Counted from the first letter of the stretch, positions 16,392-46,408 are shown. The stretch: DNA of 64,000 nucleotides from Candidatus Eiseniibacteriota bacterium (GCA_038231135.1 JBBRLX010000008.1:64001-128000); one strand, 5' to 3'. A program made the numbers and translations. Notes: generated by a model not told the origin, from the sequence alone.

Positions 16392-17279
16392 TCAGGCCTC
16401 GCTCCGGCGCTGGATCTGGAGCTGGATCATGGTGCCGATCAGCATGATCACGAACAGCACGAACGCGATCGCGGCGGCGACGCCCATGCGCCACCAGCGG
16501 AACCCCTCCTGGTACATCAGCAGCACGACGGTGGTGGTGCTCTTGAGCGGGCCGCCCTGAGTCATGACGTAGGGCTCGGAGAACAGCTGGAACTGGCCGA
16601 GCATCGTCAGCACGCACACGAACAGCAGCGTGGGTCCCAACCCGGGCAGCGTGATGTGGCGGAATCGCGCCCAGCCGCTGACGCCGTCGAGATCCGCGGC
16701 CTCGTACTGCTCGTCGGGAATGCTCTGCAGGCCGGCGATGAAGATCAGCATGTTGTAGCCGAAGTTCTTCCACACCGCCATCAGGATGATCGCGGGCATA
16801 GCCCAGTGCGGGTTGCCGAGCCAGTCGATCGGCTTGATGCCGAACTGCCCGAGCGCGAAGTCGATCAACCCGTACTGCGGGTGATAGAGGTAGCGCCACA
16901 CGATCGCCACGGCCACCAGCGTGGTGACGACGGGCACGAAGAACACCGAGCGGAAGAACGCCTGAAACCGTGTGAGGCGCGAGCTGACGGCCATGGCGGC
17001 GAGCAGCGACGCCAGCACCGACAGCGGCCCGCCCACCACCACGAAGTAGAACGTGTTGCCGAGCGCCTTCCAGAACTCCGGGTCCGACAGGATGCGCGCG
17101 TAGTTCCCGAGGCCCTGAAACCGCACGTTCGAGAGATCACCGATGGCGTAGAGGTCGAAGTCGGTGAGGCTCAGCACCAGCCCCGCGATCACCGGCAGGA
17201 AGAAGAATACGGTGATCAGGCCCAGCGAGGGCGCGACGAACGCCCAGCCGGCGCGGGTTTCCTGGCGCTCCCCTTTCAC
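16392..17279 (-). CDS. Carbohydrate ABC transporter permease (MalF/UgpA-like)
   Basis: LQSIPDEQYEAADLDG; FRHITLP; MTQGGP. Confidence 0.95.
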   Translation of the reverse strand: MKGERQETRAGWAFVAPSLGLITVFFFLPVIAGLVLSLTDFDLYAIGDLSNVRFQGLGNYARILSDPEFWKALGNTFYFVVVGGPLSVLASLLAAMAVSSRLTRFQAFFRSVFFVPVVTTLVAVAIVWRYLYHPQYGLIDFALGQFGIKPIDWLGNPHWAMPAIILMAVWKNFGYNMLIFIAGLQSIPDEQYEAADLDGVSGWARFRHITLPGLGPTLLFVCVLTMLGQFQLFSEPYVMTQGGPLKSTTTVVLLMYQEGFRWWRMGVAAAIAFVLFVIMLIGTMIQLQIQRRSEA

Positions 17280-18592: not shown

Positions 18593-18659
18593 GGGACCTG
18601 CACGCAACACCGGAGGGGCCGCATCGCCGGACCTTACCGCAACGCCGTCCGTGCCCGCA

Positions 18660-20150: not shown

Positions 20151-23100
20151 CCGAGCACCACGTCCACGCGATGCACTTCGCCGTCGCGCAGCACGGGAAC
20201 GCTCACGCCATCCTCCGCCACGTCGAGAGCCTCGCCGTCGAGGCTCGCCGACACCACGCGCCCCGCGCGCTTGCCGCGGCGCTCCACACGCACCTCGTAG
20301 CGTCCCGCGGTTCCCGGCACGCGCCAGTCGAGCTCATAGCCCGGCCAGTCGTCGGGGATCCGCGGCGCGATCACCAGCGTGTCGCCGCCGTGCCACGTGA
20401 CCCCCAGCACTGATTCGATCGTGACGCGCAGCATCCAGCCCGCCGAGCCCGTGTACCAGGTCCAGCCGCCGCGGCCGACGTGGGGAGCGGCGCCGTACAC
20501 GTCCGCCGCGATCACGTACGGCTCCACGCGATAGTTCGCGATGCGCGCGGGAGTGCGGGTGTGGGTGACGGGGCTCAGCATCTCGAGCAGTGGTGCCGCG
20601 CGGTCGCGGCGGCCCAGCTCGGCCAGCGCGCGCACCACCCACAGCGCGGCGTGCGTATACTGCCCGCCGTTCTCGCGCACGCCGGGCACGTAGCCCTTGA
20701 TGTAGCCCGGGTCGTGCGGAGTGTGCTCGAACGGCGGCGTGAGCAGCCGGATCAGCCCTTCCGCCTCCGACACCAGCAGTTTCTCGACCGCATCCATCGC
20801 CCGCCCGGCCCGCGCCGGCGGCACCGCACCGGAGATCACCGACCATGCCTGCGCCAGCGCGTCGATGCGGCATTCGTCGCCGGTCTTGGAACCGAGCGGC
20901 GTGCCGTCGTCGTAGTAGCCCCTGCGATACCAACCACCGTCCCAGCCGCCGGACTCGAGCGCGGCCACGAGTTTCGCGCGATGCTGCGCGTAGCGTGCGG
21001 CGCGGGCGGTGTCGCCGCGGCGTTCGCACGCCGGGATGAAGCCGCCGAGCACGGCGTGGAGGAAGAACCCCATCCACACGCTCTCGCCGCGGCCCTCGCG
21101 CCCCACGCGGTTCATGCCGTCGTTCCAGTCGCCGGTGCCGAACAACGGCAGACCGTGGGCGCCGGTCGCGAGCGAGCGGTCGATCGCGCGGCAGCAGTGT
21201 TCGTACACGATCCCCGCCCGGCCGGCGTCCGTCGGTTCGAGCAGCGCCTCGTCCTCGCCCGGCTCGAGCTGGCGCGCCCTTAGGAAGGGTGCAGACTCGT
21301 CGAGCACGCTCCAGTCGCCGGTCTGGTCCACGTAGTTCATCGCCAGATACGGCAGCCATAGCAGGTCGTCCACAAAGCGCGTGCGCAGCCCGCGATCCGA
21401 CGGCGGGTGCCACCAGTGGAGCACGTCGCCCTGCGCGAACTGGTGGCCGGCGTGCAGCAGCACCTGGCCGCGCGCGAGCTCGGGCGCCCACATCGTCAGC
21501 GACATCGCGTCCTGGAGCTGGTCGCGGAACCCGTACGCGCCGCCCGACTGGTAGAACGCCGACCGCGCCCAGATCCGGCACGCCAGCGTCTGGTAGGCGA
21601 GCCAGCCGTTCGCCATGAGATCGATCGCGGGCCGCGGCGTGGAGATTCGCACCCCCGACACGAGCTCCGCCCAGAACGCCCGCACCTCGGCGAGCGCCGC
21701 GTCGATCGCGCCCGGCGCGCGGTAACGGCGCGCGAGCGCCCACGCCGCGGCTGGATCGCGCGCCTCACCCAGCAGGAATGTCACGACGCCCGTGGCGCCC
21801 GCGGCCACGTCGAGCCGCGCGCGCAGCGCGAAGCACGGCTCGCGATCGGTGCCGGTCGCTCGGTCGAGATCGCGGCCCTCGGCGACCGCCCGGGGCGCGG
21901 CCACCGTGCCGCGCGTGCCCAGGAACGACGCGCGGTCGCCGGTGAAACCCGGCCGCGGCGCGCCGGCGGGCAGCACAGCCGCGGCGAACGCGGAGCTCGC
22001 GGGCAGCGTGTCGCGCTCGCGGCGCCGCGCGAGCAGCACACCCGCGTCGGTATCCCACGTCGTGATCAGGGTACGCGCCGCGGCCCTGGGATCGTCGCCC
22101 AGGACCAGGCGCTGATACGAATACACCGCGAGCCGCCGCGGCCTGGAACCCAGGTTCGTGATCGCGACCGACACCACCTTGAGCGGATCCTCGCGCGGCA
22201 CGAACAGCGTGGTGTCGTGTTCGAGCCCGTGGCTCGCGTGGGTGCAGCGGGTGTAGCCGAAGCCGTGGCGCACCTCGTAGCCGGCGGCCGCCGGAGCCGG
22301 ACCCGGCAACGGCGACCAGTATTCGCCGGTGTCCTCGTCGCGCACGTACCACGCCTCGCCGTGCGGATCGAGCAGCGGATCGTTGCTCCACGGCGTGAGC
22401 CGGTACTCGCGGCTGTTGCCGCTCCACGTCGAGCCCGCGCCGGTCTCGCTCACCAGGGTGCCGAACGATTCGTTCGCGAGCACGTTGATCCACGGCGCCG
22501 GCGGCCGCAGCAGCCCGGCGCGGGCACGGTGCGGCAGGCGGATCACATACTCGGAACCGTCTGCCGAGAACGCGCCGTGGGCATTCCGCTCGCGCAGCTG
22601 TTCCGGGCGCGCGGCGCGCCGCGGCGGCCGCGCCGGAGCCCGCGGCGCTTCCGGAGGCGACTCGTAGTTCCGGGGCAGGCTGTCGAGCAGCGAGGCATGG
22701 CGCCCGTGCGGCTTGCCGCCGACGGGCGTGGTGCCCTGGAGCTGCGCCACCGTCGCCGCGTCGCGCCGCGCGGCCTCGGCGGCGCTCACGCCCTCGAGCG
22801 CGTGCGCCTCACGCGCGTGGGCGGCGGCGCGCTCGAACGCGGCGTTCGCCGTGGCGACGGGCCGCCGCACCAGCGCCAGCGCCTCGTCGCGCCCGGCGGC
22901 GGCACCGAGCAGCAGCAGCACCCGCGCCGTACCGCCGGGCGCGAGCCGTACGACGCGGCGCAGACTCACCACCGGATCGAGCACGTTGCCCACGGTGCCC
23001 GACAACCGGCCGCTGCCGGTCAGCGCCCGCGGCGACTCGAGACTCCCACCGCGGCCCACGAACCGCTCGCGGTCGGTCTCGTGCTGAACGGCCCCCGGCC

Positions 23101-23698
23101 CCGGCATGGCGTGCACGAGCCAGGGATGCGTCTCATCGGGGCTGCGCGGGCGGCGGCGCACCAGCAGTGCGCGCTCGGCGGCGGCCCATTCGGTCTGTAG
23201 AAACAGCTTGGAGTACGCGGGGTGCGCGGCATCGGCCGCGGCGTCGTGCAGCACCACCTCGGCGTAGCTCGTGACTTCGATGCGGCGCGCGCGGCGCGAA
23301 CGGTTGTGCAACGTGACGCGGCGCACCTCGAGCGGCAGTCCCGGATCGACGCAGACTTCGAGTCGCGACTCGATGCCGTGATCGCGGCGCGCGATTTCGA
23401 ACACCCCCGGCCGCCAGATCGCGTCGTACGCCTCGGGCGCCGACCGCACGGGCTCGTGGCCCGCCGACCACACCTGGGCGCCGTCGAGATCCCGCAGATA
23501 CACGAGTGTGCCCTCGCGATCCTCGATCGGATCGCCGGCCCAGCGCGTGAGCGTGGTCGCCCCGCACGTCGTCACGCCGGTGCCGTAGGCGGTGATCACC
23601 GCCTGGAACGCGGCGTCGCCGAGCACCGCCGCGGGCGTCAGCGGCGTCCGGGGTCCGGTCACGCCCGGGCTAGGCGGCGCGACTTCGATCGTGGACAT
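20147..23698 (-). CDS. GH94 glycoside phosphorylase of the Cgs/NdvB C-terminal type (stand-alone, cytoplasmic)
   Basis: Two tandem GH94 N-terminal beta-sandwiches (AHPAYSKLFLQTE...GNVLDP; PAPWINVLAN...NSREYRLTPWSND); YQSGGAYGFRDQLQD; catalytic GTGDWNDGMN; GVRENGGQYTH; WYTGSAGW. Confidence 0.9.
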   Translation of the reverse strand: MSTIEVAPPSPGVTGPRTPLTPAAVLGDAAFQAVITAYGTGVTTCGATTLTRWAGDPIEDREGTLVYLRDLDGAQVWSAGHEPVRSAPEAYDAIWRPGVFEIARRDHGIESRLEVCVDPGLPLEVRRVTLHNRSRRARRIEVTSYAEVVLHDAAADAAHPAYSKLFLQTEWAAAERALLVRRRPRSPDETHPWLVHAMPGPGAVQHETDRERFVGRGGSLESPRALTGSGRLSGTVGNVLDPVVSLRRVVRLAPGGTARVLLLLGAAAGRDEALALVRRPVATANAAFERAAAHAREAHALEGVSAAEAARRDAATVAQLQGTTPVGGKPHGRHASLLDSLPRNYESPPEAPRAPARPPRRAARPEQLRERNAHGAFSADGSEYVIRLPHRARAGLLRPPAPWINVLANESFGTLVSETGAGSTWSGNSREYRLTPWSNDPLLDPHGEAWYVRDEDTGEYWSPLPGPAPAAAGYEVRHGFGYTRCTHASHGLEHDTTLFVPREDPLKVVSVAITNLGSRPRRLAVYSYQRLVLGDDPRAAARTLITTWDTDAGVLLARRRERDTLPASSAFAAAVLPAGAPRPGFTGDRASFLGTRGTVAAPRAVAEGRDLDRATGTDREPCFALRARLDVAAGATGVVTFLLGEARDPAAAWALARRYRAPGAIDAALAEVRAFWAELVSGVRISTPRPAIDLMANGWLAYQTLACRIWARSAFYQSGGAYGFRDQLQDAMSLTMWAPELARGQVLLHAGHQFAQGDVLHWWHPPSDRGLRTRFVDDLLWLPYLAMNYVDQTGDWSVLDESAPFLRARQLEPGEDEALLEPTDAGRAGIVYEHCCRAIDRSLATGAHGLPLFGTGDWNDGMNRVGREGRGESVWMGFFLHAVLGGFIPACERRGDTARAARYAQHRAKLVAALESGGWDGGWYRRGYYDDGTPLGSKTGDECRIDALAQAWSVISGAVPPARAGRAMDAVEKLLVSEAEGLIRLLTPPFEHTPHDPGYIKGYVPGVRENGGQYTHAALWVVRALAELGRRDRAAPLLEMLSPVTHTRTPARIANYRVEPYVIAADVYGAAPHVGRGGWTWYTGSAGWMLRVTIESVLGVTWHGGDTLVIAPRIPDDWPGYELDWRVPGTAGRYEVRVERRGKRAGRVVSASLDGEALDVAEDGVSVPVLRDGEVHRVDVVLG

Positions 23699-23780
23699 GA
23701 GGGGTGGACTCCGTCCCGCGGACCGCAACGGACCGTGGGACCGGCGAAATGGAACGGGCGGGCGTACGGCGCAACCGCGG

Positions 23781-25364
23781 TCAGCGCAGCAGCACGCACT
23801 TCTGGAGCTGGGAACGATTGCCGGCATCGAGCCGGTAGTAGTACACGCCACTCCCGAGCCCGCGGCCCCGGAGCGTCACCACCTGATTGCCTGCCGGCCG
23901 CACCCCGTCGACGAGCCGCGCGACTTCGCGTCCGGTCACGTCGTAGACGCGCAGCGTGACGTGCTCCGTAACCGGCAGCCGGAACCGGATCGAGGTCTCG
24001 TCGCGGAACGGATTCGGCTCGCTGCGCAGCAGCAGCAAGTCGCCCGCCACGGCGGGCCCCGGCACGTCCGTGGTGGTGCGCAGGAAGCCCGCCTTCGCGA
24101 GGCCAACCTGCACGTAGGAGTTCTGCATGAAGCGGTCCCAGATCGAGCTGTTGAGGTAGTTCTCGATCATCAGCACCATCGGGCCCTGATCGATGCCGAG
24201 GAAGTCGGAATCGTACCAGGGCGTGCCGGTGAGGTTGAACGCGTCGCGGAACCCGTACGTGCCCCATAGTTGGGGATACGCGTTCCGCATGTTGCGAATC
24301 GCGGGGATCGAGATCTCGGGCGCGAACGGCAGCGAGCTGGTCGCCGCGGTCGGAGAGATCGTGCCGTTGTCGGTCTGCGCCGGCGGCGCGCCGTGCGCGT
24401 TATAGCCGCCCGGGTCATCGCTGGCCGTGAGACCCCACAGGCTGTCGCTGTAGCCCGTGAAGTGGCCGGGGTTCGCGATGCAGTAAGCCCGCTGCGCGAG
24501 TGTGGCGCGGCGCGAGTTCTCGAAGTAGGTGATGCCCTTGCCGCGCATGTACGTGTCGGCAATGTAGCGGAAGTCCACCCAGCAGTGCGAATACTGATGA
24601 CCAAATAGCGGCGGGAAGATCACGTAGGTCTGGCCATACTGGGTTTGATAGTTATAGTTGCTGGTCCAGGTGTTCCACGGATTGCCGGAGCCTGCGGTTG
24701 CGGGATGGGTCGGGGAACCGAGCGCCAGGATGTAGATGATCATGCCCTCGTTGTAGCCAACCCATTGTCCGTAGCCGGCGAAGCCGGGGCCGCCCGGCTG
24801 AAAACCCATCAGGATGCCGGGGTTGAGGTTCTGCATGAACCGCCAGTCGGCCCGGCGGTAGATCGAATCCGCCCGCGCGCGAATCAGCGTCTCCAGCGAG
24901 TCGGTGCTCGAGAAGTACTGGCGCGCGTGCAGCATGCCCGCGAACAGTAGCGCGGTGTCGATCGTCGACAACTCCGAGTCGTAGGTGCGCCCACCCGTAT
25001 TCATGTCGAGGAAGTGCCAGAACAGGCCTTTGTACCCGATCGTCCCGCTCACGCTGTTGCCCTGCGGAAAGTTCCAGAACGTATTGAGCGTGGTGAGCAC
25101 GCGGTCGCGGCCCTGATCGCGCGTGATCCAGCCGTGATCGATGCCGACCGTGATCGCCGACAGGCCGAATCCGACCGCGGCGATGCTCGCCGGCGAGCCC
25201 GACGTGCTGCGGTCGCGGACCAGCCCGTTGCTGGGGTTGGCCTCGTTCCAGAAATACGAAAACGCCCGGTGCTGGACGCTGTCGAGCAGTGCTTCGGTGG
25301 TCTGGGCGCTCGCGGCCGTCGTGAACGTGAGCAAGGCTGCGAGTGCGAGGAGCGTGCGTATCAT
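23781..25364 (-). CDS. Secreted GH144-like beta-1,2-glucanase with T9SS/FlgD-Ig-like C-terminal domain
   Basis: Signal peptide MIRTLLALAALLTFTTAASA; ELSTIDTALL, WVGYNE, PLFGHQY, YFENSRRATLAQ, GIDQGP; CTD EPNPF..VYDVTGREV..GVYYYRL. Confidence 0.87.
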   Translation of the reverse strand: MIRTLLALAALLTFTTAASAQTTEALLDSVQHRAFSYFWNEANPSNGLVRDRSTSGSPASIAAVGFGLSAITVGIDHGWITRDQGRDRVLTTLNTFWNFPQGNSVSGTIGYKGLFWHFLDMNTGGRTYDSELSTIDTALLFAGMLHARQYFSSTDSLETLIRARADSIYRRADWRFMQNLNPGILMGFQPGGPGFAGYGQWVGYNEGMIIYILALGSPTHPATAGSGNPWNTWTSNYNYQTQYGQTYVIFPPLFGHQYSHCWVDFRYIADTYMRGKGITYFENSRRATLAQRAYCIANPGHFTGYSDSLWGLTASDDPGGYNAHGAPPAQTDNGTISPTAATSSLPFAPEISIPAIRNMRNAYPQLWGTYGFRDAFNLTGTPWYDSDFLGIDQGPMVLMIENYLNSSIWDRFMQNSYVQVGLAKAGFLRTTTDVPGPAVAGDLLLLRSEPNPFRDETSIRFRLPVTEHVTLRVYDVTGREVARLVDGVRPAGNQVVTLRGRGLGSGVYYYRLDAGNRSQLQKCVLLR

Positions 25365-25417: not shown

Positions 25418-26437
25418 TCAGAACGTCAAACCCACCGACACTCGATGGGTGCTGCCCAGCCGTCCCTGGTCGGCCCACGCGTAGTCGAGCCGGTATGCGT
25501 ACACGTCAATCTTACCCTGAACGCCGCCGCCAGCTGTCAGGCCGACCTCGGATTCGGGTAGAAACGCATTCTGATAGCCCAAACGCAGGGCAAACTGGTT
25601 GCGATAGGTCAATTCGGCGCCCGCGCTCATGCTCTCGGCGTTGTCGTTGGGGTGGAATGCGTCGACCGCAAGATTGAGCCGTGTCGCGGGATTGATCCGC
25701 ACCGGCAGGCCGAGCCCGACCCGGAACAGCAGCGGCACCGAGAACGGGTCGGTGAACTCCTCCGCCGGCAGCTGTCCGTTGTCGCCGAACACCGAGGGGT
25801 CCTGGTCGTACGTCACACGCAGGTCGCGCCCGCCGTAGCGTCCCTGGGTGCCGAAGTTCGACAGGCTGGCGCCCAGATGGAGGCCGTTCTCCGAGGTGCG
25901 GAACAGCGTCCCGATGTTGATCACCGAGGTCGTCAGCGAGGTGTGCCAGATCGTCTCCTGGACGTACGAGAACTGGATGCCGGCCGAGAACCTGTCGGTG
26001 ATCTCCTTGCCGTAACCCAGGCCGATCGCGACATCCGACACGCGGTACAGTTCGCCGGTGCCGAGCGGAGCGCTCACCGTCCGCACCTCGATGTCGCCCG
26101 AGTTGAGCGACGTCACCGAGGCGTAGCCGTTGCCCCACTTGCCGAGCGGCAGCGCCCCCGTGATGTGGTCGTAGGTGATGCCGGCGATCCACGCGCTGTG
26201 CGAGACCAGCAGCGCCGCGCCGCCCTCGCGTCCGATCGCCGCCGGGTTGTAGTACACGGCGTCGAGTCCGTAATCGAGCGACACGCCGGCGTTGCCCATC
26301 CCGGCGATGCGCGCGCTCGGCTCGATCAGCAGGAAGTCACCGACCGTCGTGCCCGACTTGCTCTGGGCCTCCGCCGTCCGGGCGGACAGCAGCGACGTCA
26401 GGATGGCCGCGATCCACAGGTGCCGGGTCGGCGTCAT
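25418..26437 (-). CDS. PorV/PorQ family (FadL-like) outer-membrane beta-barrel
   Basis: Signal peptide; GTTVGDFLLIEPSARIAGMGNA..YYNPAA N-terminal motif; terminal Phe (SVGLTF). Confidence 0.85.
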   Translation of the reverse strand: MTPTRHLWIAAILTSLLSARTAEAQSKSGTTVGDFLLIEPSARIAGMGNAGVSLDYGLDAVYYNPAAIGREGGAALLVSHSAWIAGITYDHITGALPLGKWGNGYASVTSLNSGDIEVRTVSAPLGTGELYRVSDVAIGLGYGKEITDRFSAGIQFSYVQETIWHTSLTTSVINIGTLFRTSENGLHLGASLSNFGTQGRYGGRDLRVTYDQDPSVFGDNGQLPAEEFTDPFSVPLLFRVGLGLPVRINPATRLNLAVDAFHPNDNAESMSAGAELTYRNQFALRLGYQNAFLPESEVGLTAGGGVQGKIDVYAYRLDYAWADQGRLGSTHRVSVGLTF

Positions 26438-29400
26438 TTGATCACCGCGAACTTGCCCACATAGTCGCCGATGCCCGGCGCCGCCACATGATAGACGAAC
26501 AGCCCCGGTGCCACGTCCAGGTTGTCGCGTGTCCTCAGGTCCCACGCCACGAACCCGTTGTTCGAGCCGTCCTGGCGCAGCGTCTGCACCAGATCGCCGC
26601 GCACGGTGTAGATGCGGATCACCGAACCCTGCGGGATCGCGCGGAACTCCAGGCGCCGGTCGCCGCGGCCCGAGGTCGCGAACCGGGCCGGCTCGAACGA
26701 CGCCGCACCCGTGTACGGGTTCGGCACCACGTACGGCTTGTCCGCCCACGCCACCTTCGCCGCGGCGGGATCCACGTGCTGCGCCTGCGTCGAGAACGTG
26801 AACACGTCGTCCGAGCTGAGCGGACGCCTCAGCCTCAGGTCGAAGACGTCGCCGGCATGCGGCGCCACGATCGGCCCGCGGAGGCCCTGCCCCAGCGTGT
26901 CGAGCTGGACACGCCACGTCACCTGCGAGTCCCGCGTCGCCACGTTCGCGAACGTCATGATGTCGATCAGTTCGTCGGCCCGGCTGAGCGTGCCGTTGTT
27001 GTCGAAGTCACGGAACCGGAAGTCGAGCTGCCGGTCGCCCTGCGGCGTGTGCGCGACGATCAGGAACTTGGCGGGCTTGGCCTGGAACCCGATGCCGGCC
27101 ACGATCGCCGTGTCCTTCACCACGTCGTAGAACGTGATCGTGATGTCGTCGGGGTAGCCGGGCCGCCGGAAATTGCTCCCCAGCGTCTTGGAGTAGATCA
27201 CCGACAATCGCGTGTTCGTCCGCCCGACGTTGCTGTCCGGCTCGAACCCGGTGCGCGTCGGATCGACGGTGGTCTCGGGCGCGTTCACGATCACCGGCAG
27301 CAAGCCGTCTCCCACCGGGCCGATGCCCTCGCCGTTCAGGTCGGTCCCGGACCCGAACAGCCTGGTCCCCGCGGTGCTGTCGAACATCGCGTACGACGTG
27401 GCGCGGATGCTGTCGGAATCGGGCGTCGCGAATGTGATCTTGAATACGTGGTCCTGCGGAATCAGGTTCGAGTCCACGATCCGGAGCGCGACCTGCCCGC
27501 TGCCGCGGCCTGCGACGTGCGCGGCGGTGTCCACTGTGGCACCGACGAAGCCGGGCACCATGGGATTCGGCCGCACCGCGACCGCGTTCGGCGGCAGGAT
27601 CAAGCCGCCGCGCGGCGTGCGCGACACCGAGATCGAGTTCTCGGACGGGTAGAACGCCAGCGAATCGGGCACGCCGTCGGGCGAGCCGTAGTCGTAGGAG
27701 GTCACGGCGTAGTAGTACTGCTGCCCGTTCACGGCCGAGGTGTCGGTCCAGGTGTGCGTGATGCCGGTCTCGTTGCCGAGGAAGTACGCGACGCCATCCA
27801 CGGTCTTCTTCGAATAGCCCTGGCGCCCGTCCTTGAGGTCGAACTGGATGATCGGTTTGCCATTCACCGGCAGCGGATTGCCGCGGCCGCTGGTGAGCAC
27901 GTGCGCGTCGAGGAAATCGGGGTCGGTCGCGCGGTAGATGCGGTACCCCTCGAAGTCGTTGACGAACGACACCGGGTCGATCGAGCGCTCGGCGACGTCG
28001 TCCCACGACAACCGCACCTTCCCGTCGCCGGCCTCGGCGCGCAGCGTCGGCTGCTGCGGCGGCACCGCGAACTGGTAGTTCGCGGTGTAGATCTGCTGCA
28101 CGGTATGGATCGTCTCGCGCAGCTCCGACAGGTCCGCGGCATAGGACAGCGCGAGGCTGAACCGCTCGCGCTTGCCGGCCTCGAGCCGGAACGGGCCCGA
28201 CGCGAACAGGAATCCGATGTTGTAGTTCGCCGCGACCGCGGAATCGAATCGCGCCGCCGGGTTCAGGTCGGTGAAGTGCTCGTACAACCGCTGCGGCCAG
28301 TTGTTGTTGTCGGTGAAGAACAGGATGTCGTCGGTGCGCGTATCGGGATTGCCGACACCGGCCTTGATCCGGTTCATCTTGAAGCCGGTGAGGCCGATCT
28401 GGTCGGACTCGTTGAGGTCGGTGCGATCGAAGTTCGGCTCGCCCTCGGTGGGGATGCCGTCGCCCTCACCGGTGTCGTGCGTGTCGGGGATGCCGTCGGC
28501 GCCGACGTCGTTGAGGTCGGCGGTCCAGTCCAGGTCCTCGTCCCCCGTCCACCAGCGCCCGGCACGAAACGCCGGCCGGTTGTCGAGCAGCCCGTAGTAC
28601 GCCTCGAATTTCGCGAGATCGTAGTGCGCCTCGACGTAGGCGCGGATCGCCGGCTTGCCCTCGATCAGCGTGCCCGGACCGCCGTCGCGCTTCTCGTCGG
28701 TGATGCCGTCGCCGTCGTTGTCCACCCCGTCGAACGGATTGCCGGGGGTCTCGAGGTACGAGTAGCCCATGTAGCCGGTCGGCGAGCAGCGGCCCGCGAG
28801 ATCGACGCCGTGCCCGTAGGTGTCCCACGTGTACACCAGGTTCAACCCCAGCGACTTGTCGAAGAACGCATTGTCGTCGTCGGATTCGTAGACGCCGTCG
28901 CACGACAACGCCGAGCCGCCGACGCCCGAGTCCATGTAGAGCCCGAACACGACGTTGTCGTCGTAGGTCGTGGTGCCTTCGTTCGTGATGTCGTAGTGCC
29001 AGAAGATCACGTTGCCGGCCTGCGGATTCGACCACTGGAATCCACGCACCTCGACGCGCAGCCCGAGCCCGTGGCGACTGAGATCGGTGCTGTCGGGATT
29101 GAAGTCGAACGCGTCGTAGAAATCATCGTCCATCACCGTGAACGATTCCTGGTCCGCCGCCGGGCGTTTGCCGAAGTAGCCGTCCCACGAGCCGCTCCAG
29201 CCCGGATCGTCGGGGTCGATGAGCTTGTCGGGCCAGCGGTTCGGCCACGTGCGCGGGTCGTTGCTGATCGCGGGCGACCGGCCGCGGTTGATCGTGGGGT
29301 CGGCCTGGGAAAATCCGGGCCGCGGCTCGAAGCGCATCACGCGGTTGAAGTACGGGCTGATGCCCTGCCGCTCGCGGAAACCGGTCTCCATGATGTACGC

Positions 29401-29754
29401 GTCGAGGCCGCTGTTCTGCCGGACCTTGGCGAGCACGAACGGCGTGACGCCGTCCGAGTAGTTCATCCCGCTGCCCTTCGGCGCCTCGGCGGAGTGGAAC
29501 ACCGACAGGTCCACGTTGCCGGGATCCGCCGGGTAGTCGCCGACCATGCCGAAGTTCCAGAACACCGTGCGCAGGTTGTTCGCGTCGTGGGTGCCCGACC
29601 GCTCGGCATCGATGCGGCCACGCTCGGCGGGCGGCTGCGAGGTGGCGCCGGCGGGCCGCGGTGGCGCGGAGTGCTTCGCGGCGGCGGCCGGACCCGCCGC
29701 GGCGCACAGCGCCAGCGCCGCGGTGATCGCCGCCGCCCACCGCGCGCGCATCAC
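26434..29754 (-). CDS. Large secreted hypothetical protein (1106 aa) with Asp-rich Ca-binding-like motifs, an FN3-like domain and a variant T9SS-like CTD
   Basis: Signal peptide; DNDGDGITDE and DVGADGIPD motifs; VRLSWD..FEGYRIYR..YYYAVTSYD (FN3-like); C-terminus YVVPNPY..IRIYTVRGDLV..WDL..KFAVIK. Confidence 0.85.
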   Translation of the reverse strand: MMRARWAAAITAALALCAAAGPAAAAKHSAPPRPAGATSQPPAERGRIDAERSGTHDANNLRTVFWNFGMVGDYPADPGNVDLSVFHSAEAPKGSGMNYSDGVTPFVLAKVRQNSGLDAYIMETGFRERQGISPYFNRVMRFEPRPGFSQADPTINRGRSPAISNDPRTWPNRWPDKLIDPDDPGWSGSWDGYFGKRPAADQESFTVMDDDFYDAFDFNPDSTDLSRHGLGLRVEVRGFQWSNPQAGNVIFWHYDITNEGTTTYDDNVVFGLYMDSGVGGSALSCDGVYESDDDNAFFDKSLGLNLVYTWDTYGHGVDLAGRCSPTGYMGYSYLETPGNPFDGVDNDGDGITDEKRDGGPGTLIEGKPAIRAYVEAHYDLAKFEAYYGLLDNRPAFRAGRWWTGDEDLDWTADLNDVGADGIPDTHDTGEGDGIPTEGEPNFDRTDLNESDQIGLTGFKMNRIKAGVGNPDTRTDDILFFTDNNNWPQRLYEHFTDLNPAARFDSAVAANYNIGFLFASGPFRLEAGKRERFSLALSYAADLSELRETIHTVQQIYTANYQFAVPPQQPTLRAEAGDGKVRLSWDDVAERSIDPVSFVNDFEGYRIYRATDPDFLDAHVLTSGRGNPLPVNGKPIIQFDLKDGRQGYSKKTVDGVAYFLGNETGITHTWTDTSAVNGQQYYYAVTSYDYGSPDGVPDSLAFYPSENSISVSRTPRGGLILPPNAVAVRPNPMVPGFVGATVDTAAHVAGRGSGQVALRIVDSNLIPQDHVFKITFATPDSDSIRATSYAMFDSTAGTRLFGSGTDLNGEGIGPVGDGLLPVIVNAPETTVDPTRTGFEPDSNVGRTNTRLSVIYSKTLGSNFRRPGYPDDITITFYDVVKDTAIVAGIGFQAKPAKFLIVAHTPQGDRQLDFRFRDFDNNGTLSRADELIDIMTFANVATRDSQVTWRVQLDTLGQGLRGPIVAPHAGDVFDLRLRRPLSSDDVFTFSTQAQHVDPAAAKVAWADKPYVVPNPYTGAASFEPARFATSGRGDRRLEFRAIPQGSVIRIYTVRGDLVQTLRQDGSNNGFVAWDLRTRDNLDVAPGLFVYHVAAPGIGDYVGKFAVIK

Positions 29755-32492
29755 TGCCCCACCTGCATGCTGACGCCGAGCTGGACCTTCCGCGGCGCGA
29801 AGAACCGGGTCGGATTCGCGAGCTGATCCGCGTCACGGACCAGGTCCGCCGTGGGCGCGTAGTACGGGCTGCCGGTGGTGTCGAACACGTAGCCGTTGAA
29901 GTACCGGGTGTCGAACACGTTGAACACGCGCGCGAACGCGCGGACGGCCCCCGGGCCGCGGCCGAACGTCTTCTCGCCCCGCAGGTCCACGGCCATCGAA
30001 GCCGGGTGGCGTCCGGAGTTGTCCTCGAGCCCGAAGCCGAACCCGACAGCACGCACCGGAGTGTAGGGCTGGCCGCTCGCCACGCGTACGACGGCGCTCA
30101 AAGAGAACCCGCTGTCGCGCGACGCCTCGACCGTCGCGTTGAGCGTATGACGCTGGTCCCAGTTGAACGGCACCTGCCGCGGCCGCGGATCCTCGCCCGC
30201 CGACGCGCGGGTCGCGGTCTCGCGCGGGTCGCTGGAGTTGCCCTGCGCGAGCTGCCAGGTGTAGTCGATCGAGCTGCTGAACAGGCCACGGCGGCGCTGC
30301 GACAGCGCGATCGTCACTCCGGTCACGCCCCCGAAGTCCACGTTCGTGAGCCGCGCGTACTCGGCGCCGTTGTAGGTGGTGACGAACTGGACGCCCAGCA
30401 GGTCACGGATGTCCTTGTAGAAGATGCCGGTGTCGAGCCCGAGCCAGTCCGTGAGCCGCTGTTTGTAGCCGAACTGATACTGCACGGTCTTCTCGGGCTT
30501 GATGTCGGGATTGCCCATCACGCTGAAGTTCGGGACATCCGCCTGCAGATCGCTCAGCACCCCGTAGTTGGAATTGGTGAACACGTCGCCGATCGACGGC
30601 ATCTGGTAGAAGTGGCCATAGGCGAAGAACAGCGACGCGTCGCTCGTGACGGGGTACGACACGCCGACGCGCGGCGAGATCGAGTACTTGGCGGACGTGC
30701 GGACCGGATGCGACAGCGGCGCGCCCTGGATCGAGTTCGCGGGATTTTCGAGGTCGCTCGGCAGGCTGGACCGGGCGTCGAAGAAGTCGAACCGGAATCC
30801 CGCGCGCACGCGCAGGTCGTTCCACTCGCCATCCTCCTGCGCGAACGCGGCGCCGATCAGCGGCGAGTTGAGCTGAACGCCCGGAAATTTCGGCGGGTCA
30901 TGGTCGTAACGCGCGAGGAACTGCCGCCCGGTGAGGGAATCCGTCACGTACGACAGCACTCCGGGACTGCCGAATTTCACCTGCGGCCACTGCATCTCGG
31001 CGCCGAGCTTGAGCGTCTGGTCGCGGTTCACCTGGTGCGTGAACGACGACTTCGCCACGATCGCGTCGGTGTTCTGCTTGAACCGGTTGAGGTCCACGCC
31101 CTGGACGAACGCGTCGTACAGGAACCCGGGCACGTTCTTCGGCGGACCCGCGAGGTCGTAGCGCGGGTCGTACAGGTTGTCGAACGCGAGGTCCTTGTAG
31201 TCGAAGTAGTTCTGCCGCAGGCTCACGTTGTAGAACGTGGCCTTGCTGACCGTGTGCGTGACGTCGACGCCGTGCGCGACCGAGAACGTGTGCTGCCGGG
31301 TGAGACCCTCGGGGTCGAACCGGTAGTTCCAGTCGGCGCGGCGCGAGTCGATGTAGTTGACGATGGCCTGATAGCCGATCTCGACGTTCGGGATCGACCG
31401 ATTGGTGACTTTGCCGATGCCCGACCACTCGCGCGAGAAGCCGAGCGGCTCCTGGCCCAGGTCGCCGTCCGGGTTGGTGGCCTTGGCGACCGGATTCCCG
31501 GTCGGGGTCAGCCACGGCGTGTAGACCCGCGTGCCGCGCACGTAGTCGTCGAACAGGTGGTAGCTGCCGCTCGTCAGATACGTGGTCTTCGGCACGAACA
31601 GCGGGCCGCTGGCGCTGAGCTGGTAGTTCTGCTCGCCCGCCGGCCAGAACGCGTAGCGCGGCTGCGGGATGAATGACCGGAAGAACACCGGAGTCGAGGA
31701 CGGATCCCGGCGCGCCACGTCGTACAGGAACCCGCCGCTCAGCACCTCGCCGTCCCAGCGGAACTTCTCCGAGCCCCGCCGCAGCACCGCGTTCACGACG
31801 CCGCTCATCGCCTGGCCGTACTCGGCGTCGAACGTGCCGCTGATGACCTGTACCTCCTCGAGCAGCGAGCGGTCGATGCGCAGGCTCGACTTGTTGTCGT
31901 AGGCGTTGTTCACCGACACGCCGTCGACCTGGAACTGCACCTCGCCGCCGCGGCCGCCGCGGAAGTGCAGATCACCGCCCTGCGACACCACGCCCGCCTG
32001 GAGATTGACGATCTCCTGCAGCTCCTGCACCGGCAGGGCGTGGATCTGGGAGCGCGTGATCGTGGCGGTGCTTGACGTCTGCTTCAGGTCGACCACCGGG
32101 CGCTGCGCGCTGACGACGACCTCGGTCATCGCGATCGGCGCCTCGTCGAGCGTCACGTCGAGGGTCGCGGTGTTGTCGGCCGACACCTCGACGCCGGTGA
32201 CGGTCGTCGCGCGATAGCCGAGCAGCCCGACCTTCACGTCATAGGCGCCGGCGGGGATGTTGAGGATGACGTAGCGGCCGTCGGCATCGGTCAGGGCTCC
32301 CAACCGGGCGAGCGGCACTGCGATATTGACCCCGGCGAGCGGCTGCTTCTTCTTGTCGACCACGCGTCCCGACAGCTTGCCCGTGGTGCCGGCCAGCGCG
32401 GATGTGGAAATGGCCAGCCACCCCATGGCAAGCAGCACCCCCGCCATGGAGGACGCGCTGCGCAGCACAATCGACCGGTGCCCGGCGTTCAC
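29751..32492 (-). CDS. TonB-dependent receptor with N-terminal carboxypeptidase-regulatory-like domain
   Basis: GTTGKLSGRVVD N-domain; plug HFRGGRGGEVQFQVDGVSV and ISGTFDAEYGQAMSGVVN; GNPDIKPEKT; SD AGGGGAG before GTG 32492. Confidence 0.92.
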   Translation of the reverse strand: MNAGHRSIVLRSASSMAGVLLAMGWLAISTSALAGTTGKLSGRVVDKKKQPLAGVNIAVPLARLGALTDADGRYVILNIPAGAYDVKVGLLGYRATTVTGVEVSADNTATLDVTLDEAPIAMTEVVVSAQRPVVDLKQTSSTATITRSQIHALPVQELQEIVNLQAGVVSQGGDLHFRGGRGGEVQFQVDGVSVNNAYDNKSSLRIDRSLLEEVQVISGTFDAEYGQAMSGVVNAVLRRGSEKFRWDGEVLSGGFLYDVARRDPSSTPVFFRSFIPQPRYAFWPAGEQNYQLSASGPLFVPKTTYLTSGSYHLFDDYVRGTRVYTPWLTPTGNPVAKATNPDGDLGQEPLGFSREWSGIGKVTNRSIPNVEIGYQAIVNYIDSRRADWNYRFDPEGLTRQHTFSVAHGVDVTHTVSKATFYNVSLRQNYFDYKDLAFDNLYDPRYDLAGPPKNVPGFLYDAFVQGVDLNRFKQNTDAIVAKSSFTHQVNRDQTLKLGAEMQWPQVKFGSPGVLSYVTDSLTGRQFLARYDHDPPKFPGVQLNSPLIGAAFAQEDGEWNDLRVRAGFRFDFFDARSSLPSDLENPANSIQGAPLSHPVRTSAKYSISPRVGVSYPVTSDASLFFAYGHFYQMPSIGDVFTNSNYGVLSDLQADVPNFSVMGNPDIKPEKTVQYQFGYKQRLTDWLGLDTGIFYKDIRDLLGVQFVTTYNGAEYARLTNVDFGGVTGVTIALSQRRRGLFSSSIDYTWQLAQGNSSDPRETATRASAGEDPRPRQVPFNWDQRHTLNATVEASRDSGFSLSAVVRVASGQPYTPVRAVGFGFGLEDNSGRHPASMAVDLRGEKTFGRGPGAVRAFARVFNVFDTRYFNGYVFDTTGSPYYAPTADLVRDADQLANPTRFFAPRKVQLGVSMQVGQ

Positions 32493-32577: not shown

Positions 32578-34485
32578 TCACTTGAGAACCAGCATCTTGC
32601 CGGCCAGTGAACCCCCCGCGGCTCCGGTCACGGGATCCGTGATCCGCAGCCGGTACAGATAGATCCCGGCGCCGAGGCCATTGCGGGCGAACGACGACTT
32701 GCGGTCACCCGCCAGCTGGAGCCCGAAGTCGCGGTGCGTGACGATGCGGCCCTGCAGGTCGAACACCTCGAGCCGCACCTTGGACGCACGCGGCAGAGAG
32801 TACTGCATCACCGTAAGCTGGCGGAACGGATTGGGATAGTTGCCGATCAGCGCCAGTCTCGCCGGCAGCGCACCCGGATCCCCAACCCCGCTGATGAACG
32901 AGTTCACGTCGAAGTAGGCGGTGGCCGGACAACATTCGTCCTCGTATTCACGCCCCCACCACGTGCGCGTGCCATAGCTGTCGGTGATGGGACTGAACGA
33001 GTCGCCGTCGAGCATGTCGATGCCGATGTAGAGCGGCAACGCGCTCAGGCCGTGCGGGAAACCGAGTGCCGTCATGTTGATCGCGAGCTCGGCGGTATAG
33101 CCCTGATCGGGCGTCGTGCCCGTGGTGTCGACCGTGGTGCCGGGCTTGAGCTTGAGCGCGATGCGCGCCGCGTGCGCGGTGTCGCGCAGGAACGGCAGGT
33201 AGTCGTCGAGCAGCAGTGAACCGCCGGGTCCGACATGGAAGCCCAGCCGCCGCGAGATGCGCGTGCGGTCCTTGCTGCGGGCAACGGCGGTGTCCTGGAT
33301 CGTGACGATGAACCCGTCCCAGCGGTCGAACAGCGGGTGCGTCTGCACCACCTGATCGCGCACGTCGAAGCCGATGTAGAACGTGTCGGCCTTGAATGCC
33401 CAGTGAATCGTGGCATCACCGGGATCGACGACCGGCGCCAGGCCACCGTTCACCGGGGGCTGGTAGAAACCCGCGCGCCACTTCATCACGCCGGGATAGG
33501 TGTTGCGCACGTCGAAGTCGCCGTAACGCATGTCGAAGTGCTGGGAGGTCTGCCACGCGGCATCGGTGAGGAAGCCGTCGATCACCGGCGGCGGGTAGTT
33601 GCCGAGGTTGGGAATCCGCACCTCGGGACCGATGGTGGGCACCGCGCCGGACGCGACGTTCACGTCGGGGCGCGCCATGATGCGCACTTCGTCGTAGTTC
33701 ATCTGGTTGCCCCACGGCCCCTGCCACCATGCGCGGTTCACGCTGAACCGCGCGCCGTTGAGCGGCCACAACCAGTCGGTGTCGTAGATCGACAGGTTCC
33801 ACTCGATGATGTCGCCGTTGGCGGCCGATGGCGTGTACCCCATGCGTCCGACGTCGATGCGCATCTCGATCGTGTAACCCGAATCGGGCGAGGCGTCGGT
33901 GTTCGACTGGCCGCCGCGCACCTTCGTCACCGCGTCCCAGGCCTGGATCTCGTCGGCGGTGCGAGCGGTGGAATCGTTGTTGGAGCTCCAATAACCGCGG
34001 AACGAGGGGACCGCACCCGGGGCGTTCAGCGCCGGGATGTCCGGATGCCACCACGAATAGAAGTATTCGACCGGGCCATGGATCGAGGCGTTGGGATCAC
34101 GATGATCCTTGAGCGCCATCAGGATGCCGTCGAACCGGTTGAAGTCCACCGAGCCGCCGACCGAGCTGTCCCGGCACGTGATGCCAAGGTACAGCTGGTC
34201 GCCGCTCACGAGGAACTTGACGGTGGCGGACGTGCTGTCTTTCGCGATCTTGCCGGCTTCCTCCTTGAAGCCGCTGCCGGGGTCGCCGTTGTCGACGCCG
34301 TAGCGGATCGTCCAGCTCTGGGCGGTCGCCCACGCCGGCTCGCCCAGCACGCCGTCCAGTGTGATCGGCTGGCCGTTCGTGTTGCGCGCCCAGATCGCAT
34401 CCTGGCGCGGCGCCTGCGCGAAGGATGGCATCGCCAGCGCCGTACAGGCGCCCGCGAGCAAAAATACCGACAGGATCCGCTTCAT
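32578..34485 (-). CDS. Secreted protein with two CBM9/DOMON-like domains and a T9SS-like CTD
   Basis: Signal peptide and SD AGGAGGAG; ITLDGVLGEPAW...GYTIEMRI and VIDGFLTDAAW...GYTAELAI; CTD GNYPNPF..VFDLQGR..GIYLYRL. Confidence 0.8.
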   Translation of the reverse strand: MKRILSVFLLAGACTALAMPSFAQAPRQDAIWARNTNGQPITLDGVLGEPAWATAQSWTIRYGVDNGDPGSGFKEEAGKIAKDSTSATVKFLVSGDQLYLGITCRDSSVGGSVDFNRFDGILMALKDHRDPNASIHGPVEYFYSWWHPDIPALNAPGAVPSFRGYWSSNNDSTARTADEIQAWDAVTKVRGGQSNTDASPDSGYTIEMRIDVGRMGYTPSAANGDIIEWNLSIYDTDWLWPLNGARFSVNRAWWQGPWGNQMNYDEVRIMARPDVNVASGAVPTIGPEVRIPNLGNYPPPVIDGFLTDAAWQTSQHFDMRYGDFDVRNTYPGVMKWRAGFYQPPVNGGLAPVVDPGDATIHWAFKADTFYIGFDVRDQVVQTHPLFDRWDGFIVTIQDTAVARSKDRTRISRRLGFHVGPGGSLLLDDYLPFLRDTAHAARIALKLKPGTTVDTTGTTPDQGYTAELAINMTALGFPHGLSALPLYIGIDMLDGDSFSPITDSYGTRTWWGREYEDECCPATAYFDVNSFISGVGDPGALPARLALIGNYPNPFRQLTVMQYSLPRASKVRLEVFDLQGRIVTHRDFGLQLAGDRKSSFARNGLGAGIYLYRLRITDPVTGAAGGSLAGKMLVLK

Positions 34486-34610: not shown

Positions 34611-35708
34611 TCAGCGAAACTCTTCGGTGCGCCGCTCGCGCGTCGCGGTGGTCATGCTCCCGCCGGCGGCGAACGGCTCGCCGGCGCGTGATTGCGGGGT
34701 GATCGCCCGGGCGGATCCGCAGGATTGCCGGATCACGAGACTGGTGGGCAGCACCTCATGGCGGTGCGCCTCGGCCGGCGCGCCCGCGCGCGTGCGGTGC
34801 AGCAGCCGCTGCAGCGCTCGCGCACCTAGCTGAAACCGGTCCACGCGCACGGTCGAGAGCGGCGGCGACAGATAGCGCGCGGTCTCGATGTCGTCGAATC
34901 CGGCGACGGCCATGTCGTCCGGCACGCGCACGCCGGCCTCCGCCAGTGCGCGCAGCACGCCCACGGCCATGTGATCGTTCGCCACGAACACCGCGGTCGG
35001 CCGCGGATCGAGAGCGAGCAGCGCCGCCACCGCCTGATAGCCCGACGGTTCCGTGAAGTCGCCGGCGAGCTCGAGTCGGCGCGACCGCTCCGCCCCCACC
35101 TCGCGCAGGCCGGCGCGGTAGCCGGCGAGGCGCTGGCGCGCGTCGACGTTGCGCACGGGACCGGACACCGTGGCGATCGAGCGATGGCCGAGCGAGAGCA
35201 GGTGCTGGACCATCGCCTGGGCGCCCTCGACGTTCGCGATCGCCACGCTGTCGTGTTCGGTGAATTCGGTGCGCGGGTCGATCAGCACGATCGGCACGTC
35301 GCCGGCCCAGCCGCGGATCGAGCCCATGGATTCGACGTCCGGAGCCATCACGACCAGGCCGTCGATGCGGCCGCGCATCGAACGCAGCGCCGACGCCAGC
35401 TCGTCGATGCCCGAGTGCGAGCTCGACACCAGCAGGTGGAAGCCCTCGCGGCGGGCCGTGACGTCGAGGCCGCGGATGACGCCCGAGAAGAACTCGCCAT
35501 GGAGGTCGGGCAGCAGCACCCCGAGCGTATGGGTGCGGTTCGTGATCAGACTGCGCGCCATGGCGTTGGGCCAGTAGTTGAGGCGCGACGCGACGGCGCG
35601 GACCTGGCTCTCGGTCGTGGTGCTGACGAGACCCTTGTCATTGAAAACGCGCGAAACCGTGGCAATCGAGACGCCTGCCTCGCGAGCCACGTCCTTGATG
35701 GTTGCCAC
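34611..35708 (-). CDS. LacI family transcriptional regulator
   Basis: ATIKDVAREAGVSIATVSRVFN HTH; YWPNAMARSL; AGFDD; GTG start with SD GGAG. Confidence 0.96.
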   Translation of the reverse strand: MATIKDVAREAGVSIATVSRVFNDKGLVSTTTESQVRAVASRLNYWPNAMARSLITNRTHTLGVLLPDLHGEFFSGVIRGLDVTARREGFHLLVSSSHSGIDELASALRSMRGRIDGLVVMAPDVESMGSIRGWAGDVPIVLIDPRTEFTEHDSVAIANVEGAQAMVQHLLSLGHRSIATVSGPVRNVDARQRLAGYRAGLREVGAERSRRLELAGDFTEPSGYQAVAALLALDPRPTAVFVANDHMAVGVLRALAEAGVRVPDDMAVAGFDDIETARYLSPPLSTVRVDRFQLGARALQRLLHRTRAGAPAEAHRHEVLPTSLVIRQSCGSARAITPQSRAGEPFAAGGSMTTATRERRTEEFR

Positions 35709-35788: not shown

Positions 35789-35824
35789 GATGTAAACGAT
35801 TACACCGAGACCGAATCATGTCAA
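35789..35824 (-). promoter_or_regulatory. LacI-type operator 1 (TGTAAACGATTACA, 35791-35804) beside a TTGACA -35 element upstream of the lacI-family gene
   Basis: Near-palindrome TGTAA-A-CG-A-TTACA; TTGACA on the minus strand at 35824-35819; identical copy at 38487. Confidence 0.85.
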
Positions 35825-38484: not shown

Positions 38485-38523
38485 GATGTAAACGATTACA
38501 CAACCGTGTTGTGGGAGCGTCAA
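38485..38523 (-). promoter_or_regulatory. Sigma70-type promoter TTGACG-N17-TGTAAT with LacI-type operator 2 (38487-38500) covering the -10 element
   Basis: Minus strand TTGACG CTCCCACAACACGGTTG TGTAAT CGTTTACA; 17-bp exact match to operator 1. Confidence 0.85.
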
Positions 38524-46334: not shown

Positions 46335-46408
46335 GGGACGGCCTTTCAGGGGAAGGTATCCGGAGATTTTACACCTGTTTGCGAACCGGCGCAGCGAAAT
46401 TTTGGTAG

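Follow-up and report, generated by a model that had tools for sequence, protein, structure and literature searches.

SusC/SusD pairs are the marker by which glycan utilization loci are predicted, according to the available text of a 2026 glycoside-transporter review. In the attachment complex of Porphyromonas gingivalis, PorZ and PorU keep their tails, which remain attached to PorQ and PorV without being cleaved, and the PorZ tail belongs to neither type A nor type B of the C-terminal domains (CTDs), as stated in the accessible parts of two reports (10.1101/2020.05.13.094771, PMC10202324). BamG, a 14-stranded FadL-family barrel, docks on a larger barrel and holds an extracellular protein over it (PMC12611786, PMC12578637, accessible parts). 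Here we compare with these systems a three-gene module from Candidatus Eiseniibacteriota bacterium (GCA_038231135.1, JBBRLX010000008.1:64001-128000). The module lies on the minus strand of a 64,000-nt stretch, called the window throughout, from a host genome of 4.09 Mb that is 93% complete, and encodes a TonB-dependent receptor, a large partner protein and a PorV/PorQ-family barrel. This triad is real, widespread and apparently an undescribed variant of uptake by a receptor plus a surface partner. The first-pass annotation of the window, made by a model from the DNA alone, had proposed an undescribed system, and indeed no description of the triad was found in the open-access literature, a coverage outside which subscription journals largely fall; the available text of the 2026 review contains no occurrence of PorV, T9SS, Ignavibacter or Rhodotherm.

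Layout and conservation of the triad

The three core genes are arranged as follows:

29751..32492, minus strand: TonB-dependent receptor, 913 amino acids (aa), with CarboxypepD_reg N-terminal extension, plug and barrel (Pfam PF13620/PF07715/PF00593)
26434..29754, minus strand: partner protein, 1106 aa, with a Sec-type signal peptide lacking a lipobox and no Pfam family (E 0.01)
25418..26437, minus strand: PorV/PorQ-family barrel, 339 aa, dedicated to the locus (NF033709, 179 bits against a cut-off of 90)

The receptor starts with GTG, preceded by a GGGGAG site. Its stop codon and the start of the partner gene are joined as GTGA, and the partner stop and the barrel start at 26437 as ATGA, each a 4-nt overlap. 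The partner is 1106 aa long when counted from its GTG and 1105 aa from the next ATG. For the barrel, the mechanically listed open reading frame (ORF) of 499 aa starts too early and was rejected in favor of 339 aa. Both overlaps, as well as a middle protein of 1106 aa without lipobox, had been described by the first-pass annotation and are borne out. The same goes for its DxDxDG-type motifs, two of which occur in the partner (residues 345 and 916), and for its FN3-like domain, backed by a structure model and a weak fold-library match given below. It had also set the partner CTD apart from those of five other proteins in the window. These start at 23781, 32578, 35946, 43629 and 58693. Type A model TIGR04183 recognizes the first three and not the partner. 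On the SusC/RagA model TIGR04056, the receptor reaches 61.8 bits against a cut-off of 368.25, and with its N-terminal part only; it is a TonB-dependent receptor and not SusC. No close relative of it was found among solved structures.

Related loci were collected by a GTDB scan with a 129-row alignment, in which 570 relatives were confirmed among 600 stretches from 6 of the 64 parts of the collection; the best 80 of these 570 were analyzed, a sample that leans to close relatives. A receptor gene lies upstream of the partner gene in all 75 loci with room for one (5 of the 80 have none), and a barrel gene lies downstream in 71 of 71 (9 without room), with one gene inserted ahead of it in L064 and L078. 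The triad records come from Eisenbacteria, Krumholzibacteriia, Ignavibacteria, Calditrichia, Rhodothermales, Kryptoniota and Marinimicrobia. The linkage of the three genes is thus conserved far beyond chance; a non-conserved triad was one of the findings that the annotation had named as refuting its proposal. Clustered at 50% identity, the partner family counts 541 clusters (E up to 1e-30), and no Pfam model covers it; by estimate, about 6600 GTDB stretches match its patterns.

Copy number varies in two loci: L064:6717-13126 holds one receptor, then two tandem partner genes, another gene and one barrel, and L086:3-4583 two tandem receptors of the triad clade, then one partner and one barrel. 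In L017, L046, L047, L061 and G020:C1:18043-21103, the receptor or partner is split into several frames, probably through long-read sequencing errors.

The host genome carries four triads, on contigs C8, C3, C35 and C2, the last in the order receptor-barrel-partner. Four of its eight PorV-family genes belong to these triads and a fifth follows a PorU-like gene; five other genomes yielded 12 to 35 PorV-family matches each. Two orphan partner-family genes (C24:49823-52402 and C16:30411-32849) and two triad-clade receptors without partner genes (C14:87466-90093 and C4:199492-202014) are also present. By their C-terminal sequences these resemble the C35 triad and may represent dispersed partners that share one barrel. 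At C2:176563-187039, genes for large secreted proteins or lipoproteins stand in a row whose last member is a 437-aa ORF with an FN3 trace and a variant tail and no head; neither a barrel nor a receptor gene is nearby.

We then compared gene content between close loci, defined by a partner at least 52% identical, and distant ones, using only loci of at least 14 kb for substrate counts. GH144 or GH94 is present in 36 of 37 close loci, as opposed to 1 of 20 distant loci. A gene for a CBM9-like protein adjoins the receptor in all 39 testable close loci (38 by script, L049 by eye) and, at the same score, in none of 17 distant loci, several of which have other CBM9 or CBM4 proteins in its place. The neighbors in distant loci (Pfam, 105 proteins from 16 loci; 12 further proteins left out) include GH9/GH16/GH2/GH3 sets, GH130 sets, amidases and glycerol-phosphate genes, and none of the 105 matches SusD. 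Judged by gene content, the partner subfamily follows the substrate context.

Tail, barrel and head of the partner protein

The structure model of the partner (predicted local distance difference test, pLDDT, 88; predicted template-modelling score 0.76) and profile searches divide the protein into these parts:

[quoted passage not shown]
26773..27552, minus strand: spacer of two nested beta subdomains (model pLDDT 95), the least conserved part, 44% identity
27553..28062, minus strand: FN3-like domain with an insert (model strands; 3MPC, E 0.024), in nearly all distant family members
28063..29628, minus strand: head, a beta-supersandwich by fold match (9JU0; Z 19.9, root-mean-square deviation 3.1, 262 residues aligned)
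about 28393-28737, minus strand: acidic insert in the head, probably calcium-binding (model)

The resemblance of the tail to PorZ and PorU is weak but recurs: nine of ten proteins match NF052228 and/or NF033707 (E 6.5e-8 to 0.08), PDB searches with the tail returned PorU (6ZA2, E 0.016) and PorZ (5M11, E 0.03), and the terminal motif is kept in 191 of 204 homologues. A lipobox is absent from the window partner, and lipobox-like strings occur in 7 of the 204 full-length homologues, at unaligned places. The type A models TIGR04183 and PF18962 did not match the window partner (E 0.1 in the tail search; E 0.01). However, a partner paralogue on C3 passes TIGR04183, so the variant and type A tail classes are related. 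The type B models TIGR04131 and PF13585 found no match in the tail, nor PF11751 in the barrel; in one of 40 partner homologues, PF13585 scored below its cut-off. We therefore rejected type B CTDs with PorP/SprF barrels as the class to which the pair belongs, since the tail misses the type B models and the barrel is of the PorV/PorQ family.

On the equivalog models NF033710 and NF033711, the barrel scores 59 against 250 and 80.5 against 220 bits, below both cut-offs; by profile it is a member of the PorV/PorQ family, but not PorV or PorQ proper. Its nearest solved relative is PorV (6H3I, E 3.8e-21). Its sequence shares 25% identity with the PorV that is linked to PorU in the same genome, and 46-61% with the barrels of orthologous loci in other phyla. 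The module is also not the housekeeping porU-porV locus, which sits on C30.

Pairing of tail and barrel was examined in five other genomes. Counting profile hits that reach the tail with at least 40 bits (a line set after seeing the list, with non-tail rows dropped), a PorV-family gene lies no more than 400 bases downstream in 52 of 60 tail hits, compared with 3 of 44 weaker hits; these three are long ORFs beside top-scoring PorV genes. Three of the remaining eight tail hits have a PorV-family gene within 10 kb. Of 20 tail places inspected, 18 have a barrel gene, and each of these also has a receptor from the triad clade; the other two are orphans with neither. In two of the 18 (L089 and L100), the order is partner, gap, receptor, barrel, with the partner 4 kb away.

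The host genome contains SprA, PorU-PorV and TonB and 128 type A CTD matches. SprA, PorU and PorV were matched in 15 relatives as well, whereas the models PF11751, GldM and GldN went unmatched together with their controls and are uninformative. By analogy with PorZ-PorQ, export of the partner through SprA and retention of its uncleaved tail in the barrel are likely.

Turning to the head, further fold matches were 1LF6 (Z 19.2), 5H3Z (Z 15.7) and 3NRE (Z 13.1). Dextran dextrinase, glucoamylase and GH94 enzymes thus match it with their N-terminal domains (Z 19.9 to 15.7), and aldose 1-epimerases match it less closely (Z 13). GH15, GH94 and GH65 enzymes have this beta-supersandwich as their N-terminal domain, and aldose 1-epimerases share the fold. 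In enzymes of the GH15/GH94/GH65 type, a helical (alpha/alpha)6 catalytic barrel follows the supersandwich. No such barrel was found in the partner model, which has only a few short helices, and no Pfam GH family matched. Nor did Pfam find a catalytic domain in any of 40 close or 15 distant partners; the sixteenth protein of the distant set, an orphan, is a subtilase. Thus, by Pfam, the partner matches no enzyme family; a known enzyme was among the findings that the first-pass annotation had named as refuting its proposal. Residues 1-300 of the head are 74% identical within the close subfamily and 40% outside it; within the subfamily, the receptor plug reaches 74% as well, the receptor barrel 49% and the spacer 44%. 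A ligand site or partner interface would account for such a pattern, and catalysis would be compatible with it, too.

The outer spacer subdomain resembles FlgK/FlgL D2 (Z 9.1, root-mean-square deviation 2.2, 85 aligned). For the inner one no fold match was obtained, which is not evidence of a new fold, and Foldseek found no match for the spacer at E 0.001. With the full partner model, Foldseek returned diffuse FN3/Ig matches of low template-modelling score, with PorZ second; sequence searches against the PDB gave urease-beta noise only, and the nearest Protein Atlas clusters are all unnamed. In short family members (600-800 aa) the spacer is missing, and head, FN3 and tail are retained; in about half of them, head scores are weak or absent. 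Six long members (P0157, P0193, P0206, P0217, P0229 and P0239; 1358-1592 aa) bear Reg_prop beta-propeller repeats in their C-terminal third, a repeat type known in PorZ too.

The surrounding beta-1,2-glucan locus

Along the minus strand, the operon runs LacI, CBM9-like protein, receptor, partner, barrel, GH144, GH94, second GH144, ABC genes and a discoidin-domain glycosidase-like gene. Features of the locus outside the core are:

38487..38500, unstranded: second operator, identical to the first, upstream of the 35946-38285 gene (pattern search)
35946..38285, minus strand: secreted protein, not annotated; carries a beta-rich domain repeated twice plus a type A CTD, with homologues at 12 related loci
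35791..35804, unstranded: LacI-type operator TGTAAACGATTACA upstream of the operon (pattern search)
34611..35708, minus strand: LacI-family repressor (Pfam)
32578..34485, minus strand: CBM9-like protein with a type A CTD, the fourth conserved gene (TIGR04183 over cut-off)
23781..25364, minus strand: GH144 beta-1,2-glucanase homologue with a type A CTD (PF10091; 8XUL, E 2.9e-108)
20147..23851, minus strand: GH94, phosphorylase-type (8RF9, E 1.1e-258, against 5.6e-80 for cellobiose phosphorylase)
18660..20150, minus strand: second GH144 homologue (PF10091, E 1.9e-73)
15570..18610, minus strand: ABC solute-binding protein and two permeases (3UOR, E 1.6e-137; Lin1841 5YSB, E 6e-66)
12346..15573, minus strand: CBM11/discoidin-domain glycosidase-like protein, last of the operon (profile searches, locus comparison)

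The GH144 homologue next to the barrel gene also matches the endo-beta-1,2-glucanase 5GZH (E 7.4e-58). Because homologues of GH144, a phosphorylase-type GH94 and a sophoro-oligosaccharide binding protein occur together, as in PMC8861115, we take beta-1,2-glucan to be the probable substrate of the locus with good confidence. This substrate, as well as the CBM9-like gene with its type A CTD that travels with the triad as a fourth gene, had been missed in the first reading of the window. The CBM9-like protein is likely a surface glycan binder; its Protein Atlas look-alikes are CBM9_1 at 0.84-0.87, a lead only.

The exact operator pattern has three matches in the 4.09-Mb genome, two of them at this locus, and is present in 29 of 37 close loci. 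In a shuffle control, at least two matches at one mismatch occurred in 5 of 100 shuffles. The 35946-38285 gene, with its own operator copy upstream, likely shares a regulon with the module operon. Its product contains two copies of an unannotated beta-rich domain of ~270 aa, found in three copies in L013 and with homologues in 12 related beta-1,2-glucan loci; possibly the domain represents a new family that binds or cleaves beta-1,2-glucan. A GH1 beta-glucosidase gene at 8630-9985, on the opposite (plus) strand 2.4 kb beyond the operon end, could finish glucoside breakdown. Farther away, a Kelch-repeat protein (43629-46451, minus strand) and a right-handed beta-helix protein (58693-60174, plus strand) have ordinary CTD-like tails.

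Proposed mechanism, alternatives and known systems

Based on these observations, we somewhat favor a reading in which the partner is exported by the T9SS, held by its PorZ-like tail in its own barrel beside the receptor, and captures beta-1,2-glucan fragments with its head for import. The partner would pass the inner membrane by Sec and then the outer membrane through SprA, where the dedicated PorV/PorQ-family barrel would capture its uncleaved tail and display it on the surface next to the TonB-dependent receptor. The small barrel would lean on the receptor barrel in the manner of BamG on BamA and of PorV on SprA. A surface GH144 would cut beta-1,2-glucan, the supersandwich head would capture the resulting beta-1,2-gluco-oligomers and close over the receptor, and the receptor would import them, driven by TonB. 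The second GH144, the ABC transporter and GH94 would complete breakdown inside, the whole pathway being under the control of the LacI repressor. A bolder form, which we put forward tentatively and would not quite bet on, sees an outer-membrane importer of new design with three subunits: the PorV-like barrel would dock on the side of the receptor and clamp the tail of a T9SS-exported lid over it. Eisenbacteria, Ignavibacteria, Calditrichia and related lineages would have in it their chief device for capturing nutrients, the T9SS would build transporters, and SusC/SusD would be the alternative of Bacteroidia.

Trees were compared for 58 of 81 loci, the rest having been dropped as truncated, frameshifted or rearranged. 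Receptor, partner and barrel trees agree in 27-35 of 55 splits (random mean 0.2). On 21 splits from 24 loci, agreement was 20 for receptor-barrel, 16 each for receptor-partner and partner-barrel, 16 for receptor-CBM9 and 14 for receptor-LacI. Since other genes of the locus agree nearly as well, we did not accept co-phylogeny as proof of interaction. Receptor barrel and head together comprise 1120-1207 residues in all 58 pairs. Receptor and barrel were chosen for complex prediction because their trees are closest and their adjacency is kept in rearranged loci. With the receptor barrel (671 residues, plug left out) and the small barrel, the score was 0.34 while the best of three controls gave 0.00, with at least 82% contact agreement between runs and a partner-chain pLDDT of at least 74. 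Of solved complexes, 116 of 157 reach the mark applied, and of mismatches, 2 of 215; at scores of 0.60 or below, only 18 of the 157 and both mismatches do. This weakly supports a predicted contact between receptor and barrel, and because the pass is weak it raises the odds of a physical complex only slightly.

The first-pass annotation had looked to both kinds of evidence: the three trees agree but do not single out the triad from LacI and the CBM9-like gene, and an interface is weakly supported for receptor barrel and small barrel, the one pair modelled. Its view that the partner is held by its own barrel is well supported as to anchoring; the precedent it named, type B cargo with PorP/SprF, does not hold, and PorZ-PorQ/PorU-PorV takes its place. 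The substrate-capture lid that it made of the partner is kept here as a proposal.

Several observations weigh against the favored reading. The LacI and CBM9-like trees agree almost as well as those of the triad (12-16 of 21 splits against 16-20). A complex pass at 0.34 is weak, oftener wrong than right unless the complex is likely beforehand, and gives no interface; it may also echo solved barrel-barrel pairs such as SprA-PorV and BamA-BamG, and the controls are not stated to be membrane barrels. Three of the seven variant-tail proteins of the host genome have no barrel or receptor nearby, the other four being in triads, and 5 of the 60 tails elsewhere have no barrel gene within 10 kb. Some triads sit in loci without glycosidases, and in four of five genomes of other lineages SusD coexists with triads. 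H17 and H48 (model numbering) are invariant in the subfamily, and the supersandwich fold is found in enzymes too (aldose 1-epimerases, GH174). Finally, both the contact of the partner with the receptor and its binding of sugar are proposals.

Of the alternatives, the strongest is that the partner is barrel-anchored and binds glycan as a free-standing surface glycan-binding protein, like SusE/F, with neither a lid function nor a stable complex with the receptor. The evidence from tail and barrel fits this equally well, orphan partners exist, the partner gene lies 4 kb from receptor and barrel in L089 and L100, and inheritance of the locus would explain the co-phylogeny. We nevertheless consider it unlikely, as each receptor has one partner and one barrel in all 68 loci testable on both sides (42 close, 26 distant, by script count), a stricter pattern than that of the variable accessory genes in these loci, and the receptor-barrel prediction, though weak, points the other way.

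That the partner is an unknown enzyme, its supersandwich head acting as an epimerase, lyase or hydrolase while the barrel tethers it at the surface beside the importer, is quite unlikely. The 74% conservation of the head across phyla, its subfamily-invariant H17, H48, D43, D216, E251, D253 and several Arg, and a fold shared with aldose 1-epimerases (Z 13) and the GH174 fucanase (Z 13.9, root-mean-square deviation 3.9, 241 aligned) would suit such a role. But the head is matched best by N-terminal domains from (alpha/alpha)6 enzymes, and the model lacks the catalytic barrel that these enzymes have. Aldose 1-epimerases have a conserved catalytic His and Glu in the sandwich. No His is invariant across the partner family, and no acidic residue occurs in the second-last head strand, the probable counterpart of the strand that bears the catalytic Glu. 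Moreover, the same head occurs in loci for unrelated substrates, and this locus already has two GH144 and one GH94.

A structural role, as a cap or folding aid for this receptor clade with no contact to substrate, comparable to the canopy of the Bacteroidota BAM (barrel assembly machinery), appears very unlikely. It has a precedent in a FadL-family barrel that holds a calcium-rich extracellular canopy over a larger barrel, and many family-invariant residues are Gly, Pro, Trp and Asp; however, the polar conservation in the head is subfamily-specific and tracks substrate context, and the fold is of a carbohydrate-enzyme type. Hardly credible is a FadL-like channel merely co-regulated with the receptor and a periplasmic partner with a plain Ig-like tail: surface location is argued by analogy and the tail scores are weak (E 2e-4 to 0.04), but tail-barrel adjacency (52 of 60 against 3 of 44), PorV as nearest solved relative of the barrel and the terminal motif kept in 191 of 204 homologues all oppose it.

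Under the capture reading, the triad would matter beyond this locus. Because the SusC/SusD pair is the marker, lineages without SusD are missed by locus prediction; the triad could be a second marker for glycan loci, with partner subfamilies predicting the substrate. If true, the reading would also explain the many PorV-family paralogues per genome (8 here, 12 to 35 matches in the five others) and link the T9SS to transporter assembly. Cultured carriers (Ignavibacterium, Rhodothermus) make the module directly testable.

Published clusters of two cultured bacteria come close. The IALB_1177-1187 region of Ignavibacterium album contains two GH144, a GH94, an ABC binding protein and a TonB-dependent transporter without characterized close homologues (PMC8861115, accessible part), and receptor and partner are present in L021, from an I. 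album metagenome-assembled genome. In the xylan locus of Rhodothermus marinus, Rmar_1070-1072 follow one another as receptor, hypothetical CTD protein and a further hypothetical protein (PMC6987092, Table 1). From that table alone, not from sequence, we read them as an unrecognized triad. Unlike the present analysis, neither paper, in its accessible part, names partner or barrel as a system.

Among mechanistic precedents, BamA-BamG-BamH/M has the architecture that the capture reading would need; there, BamA is the large barrel, a lipoprotein is held over it, and the complex serves protein folding. Type B CTDs with PorP/SprF in Flavobacterium johnsoniae likewise place a cargo gene beside a dedicated barrel gene and include orphan cargoes, which may share a shuttle barrel (PMC12618676), yet the module tail is not type B and its barrel is not PorP/SprF by profile. 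The accessible text of that paper mentions no receptor linkage ("TonB" has no occurrence). PorZ-PorQ/PorU-PorV comes closer, with similar tails and barrels of the same family. However, the module cargo is unrelated outside the tail (14.4 bits against a cut-off of 260), a genome has many paralogous pairs, every one of them linked to a nutrient receptor, and the host has its own separate PorU-PorV locus on C30.

With SusC/SusD (RagA/RagB), the module shares a receptor and an invariably adjacent, predicted surface partner at the core of a glycan locus, as well as a partner subfamily that tracks substrate. In contrast, its receptor fails the SusC model, and its partner has no lipobox or SusD match, is all-beta and twice the size of SusD. 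SusD has a helical TPR fold while the module partner is mostly beta, and the module has an obligatory third gene, the barrel. The first-pass annotation had the module standing in for SusC/SusD. This holds for the host lineage, where SusD (PF07980) matches none of 61 genomes, 45 of them with a partner match of E 1e-200 or lower, and where PF14322 and PF12771 are unmatched in the host genome; it does not hold elsewhere, where both coexist in four of five genomes. Taken together, the sequence comparisons indicate that the triad works like SusC/SusD by context yet is not a member, and that it probably has a PorZ-PorQ-like anchor yet is not the attachment complex.

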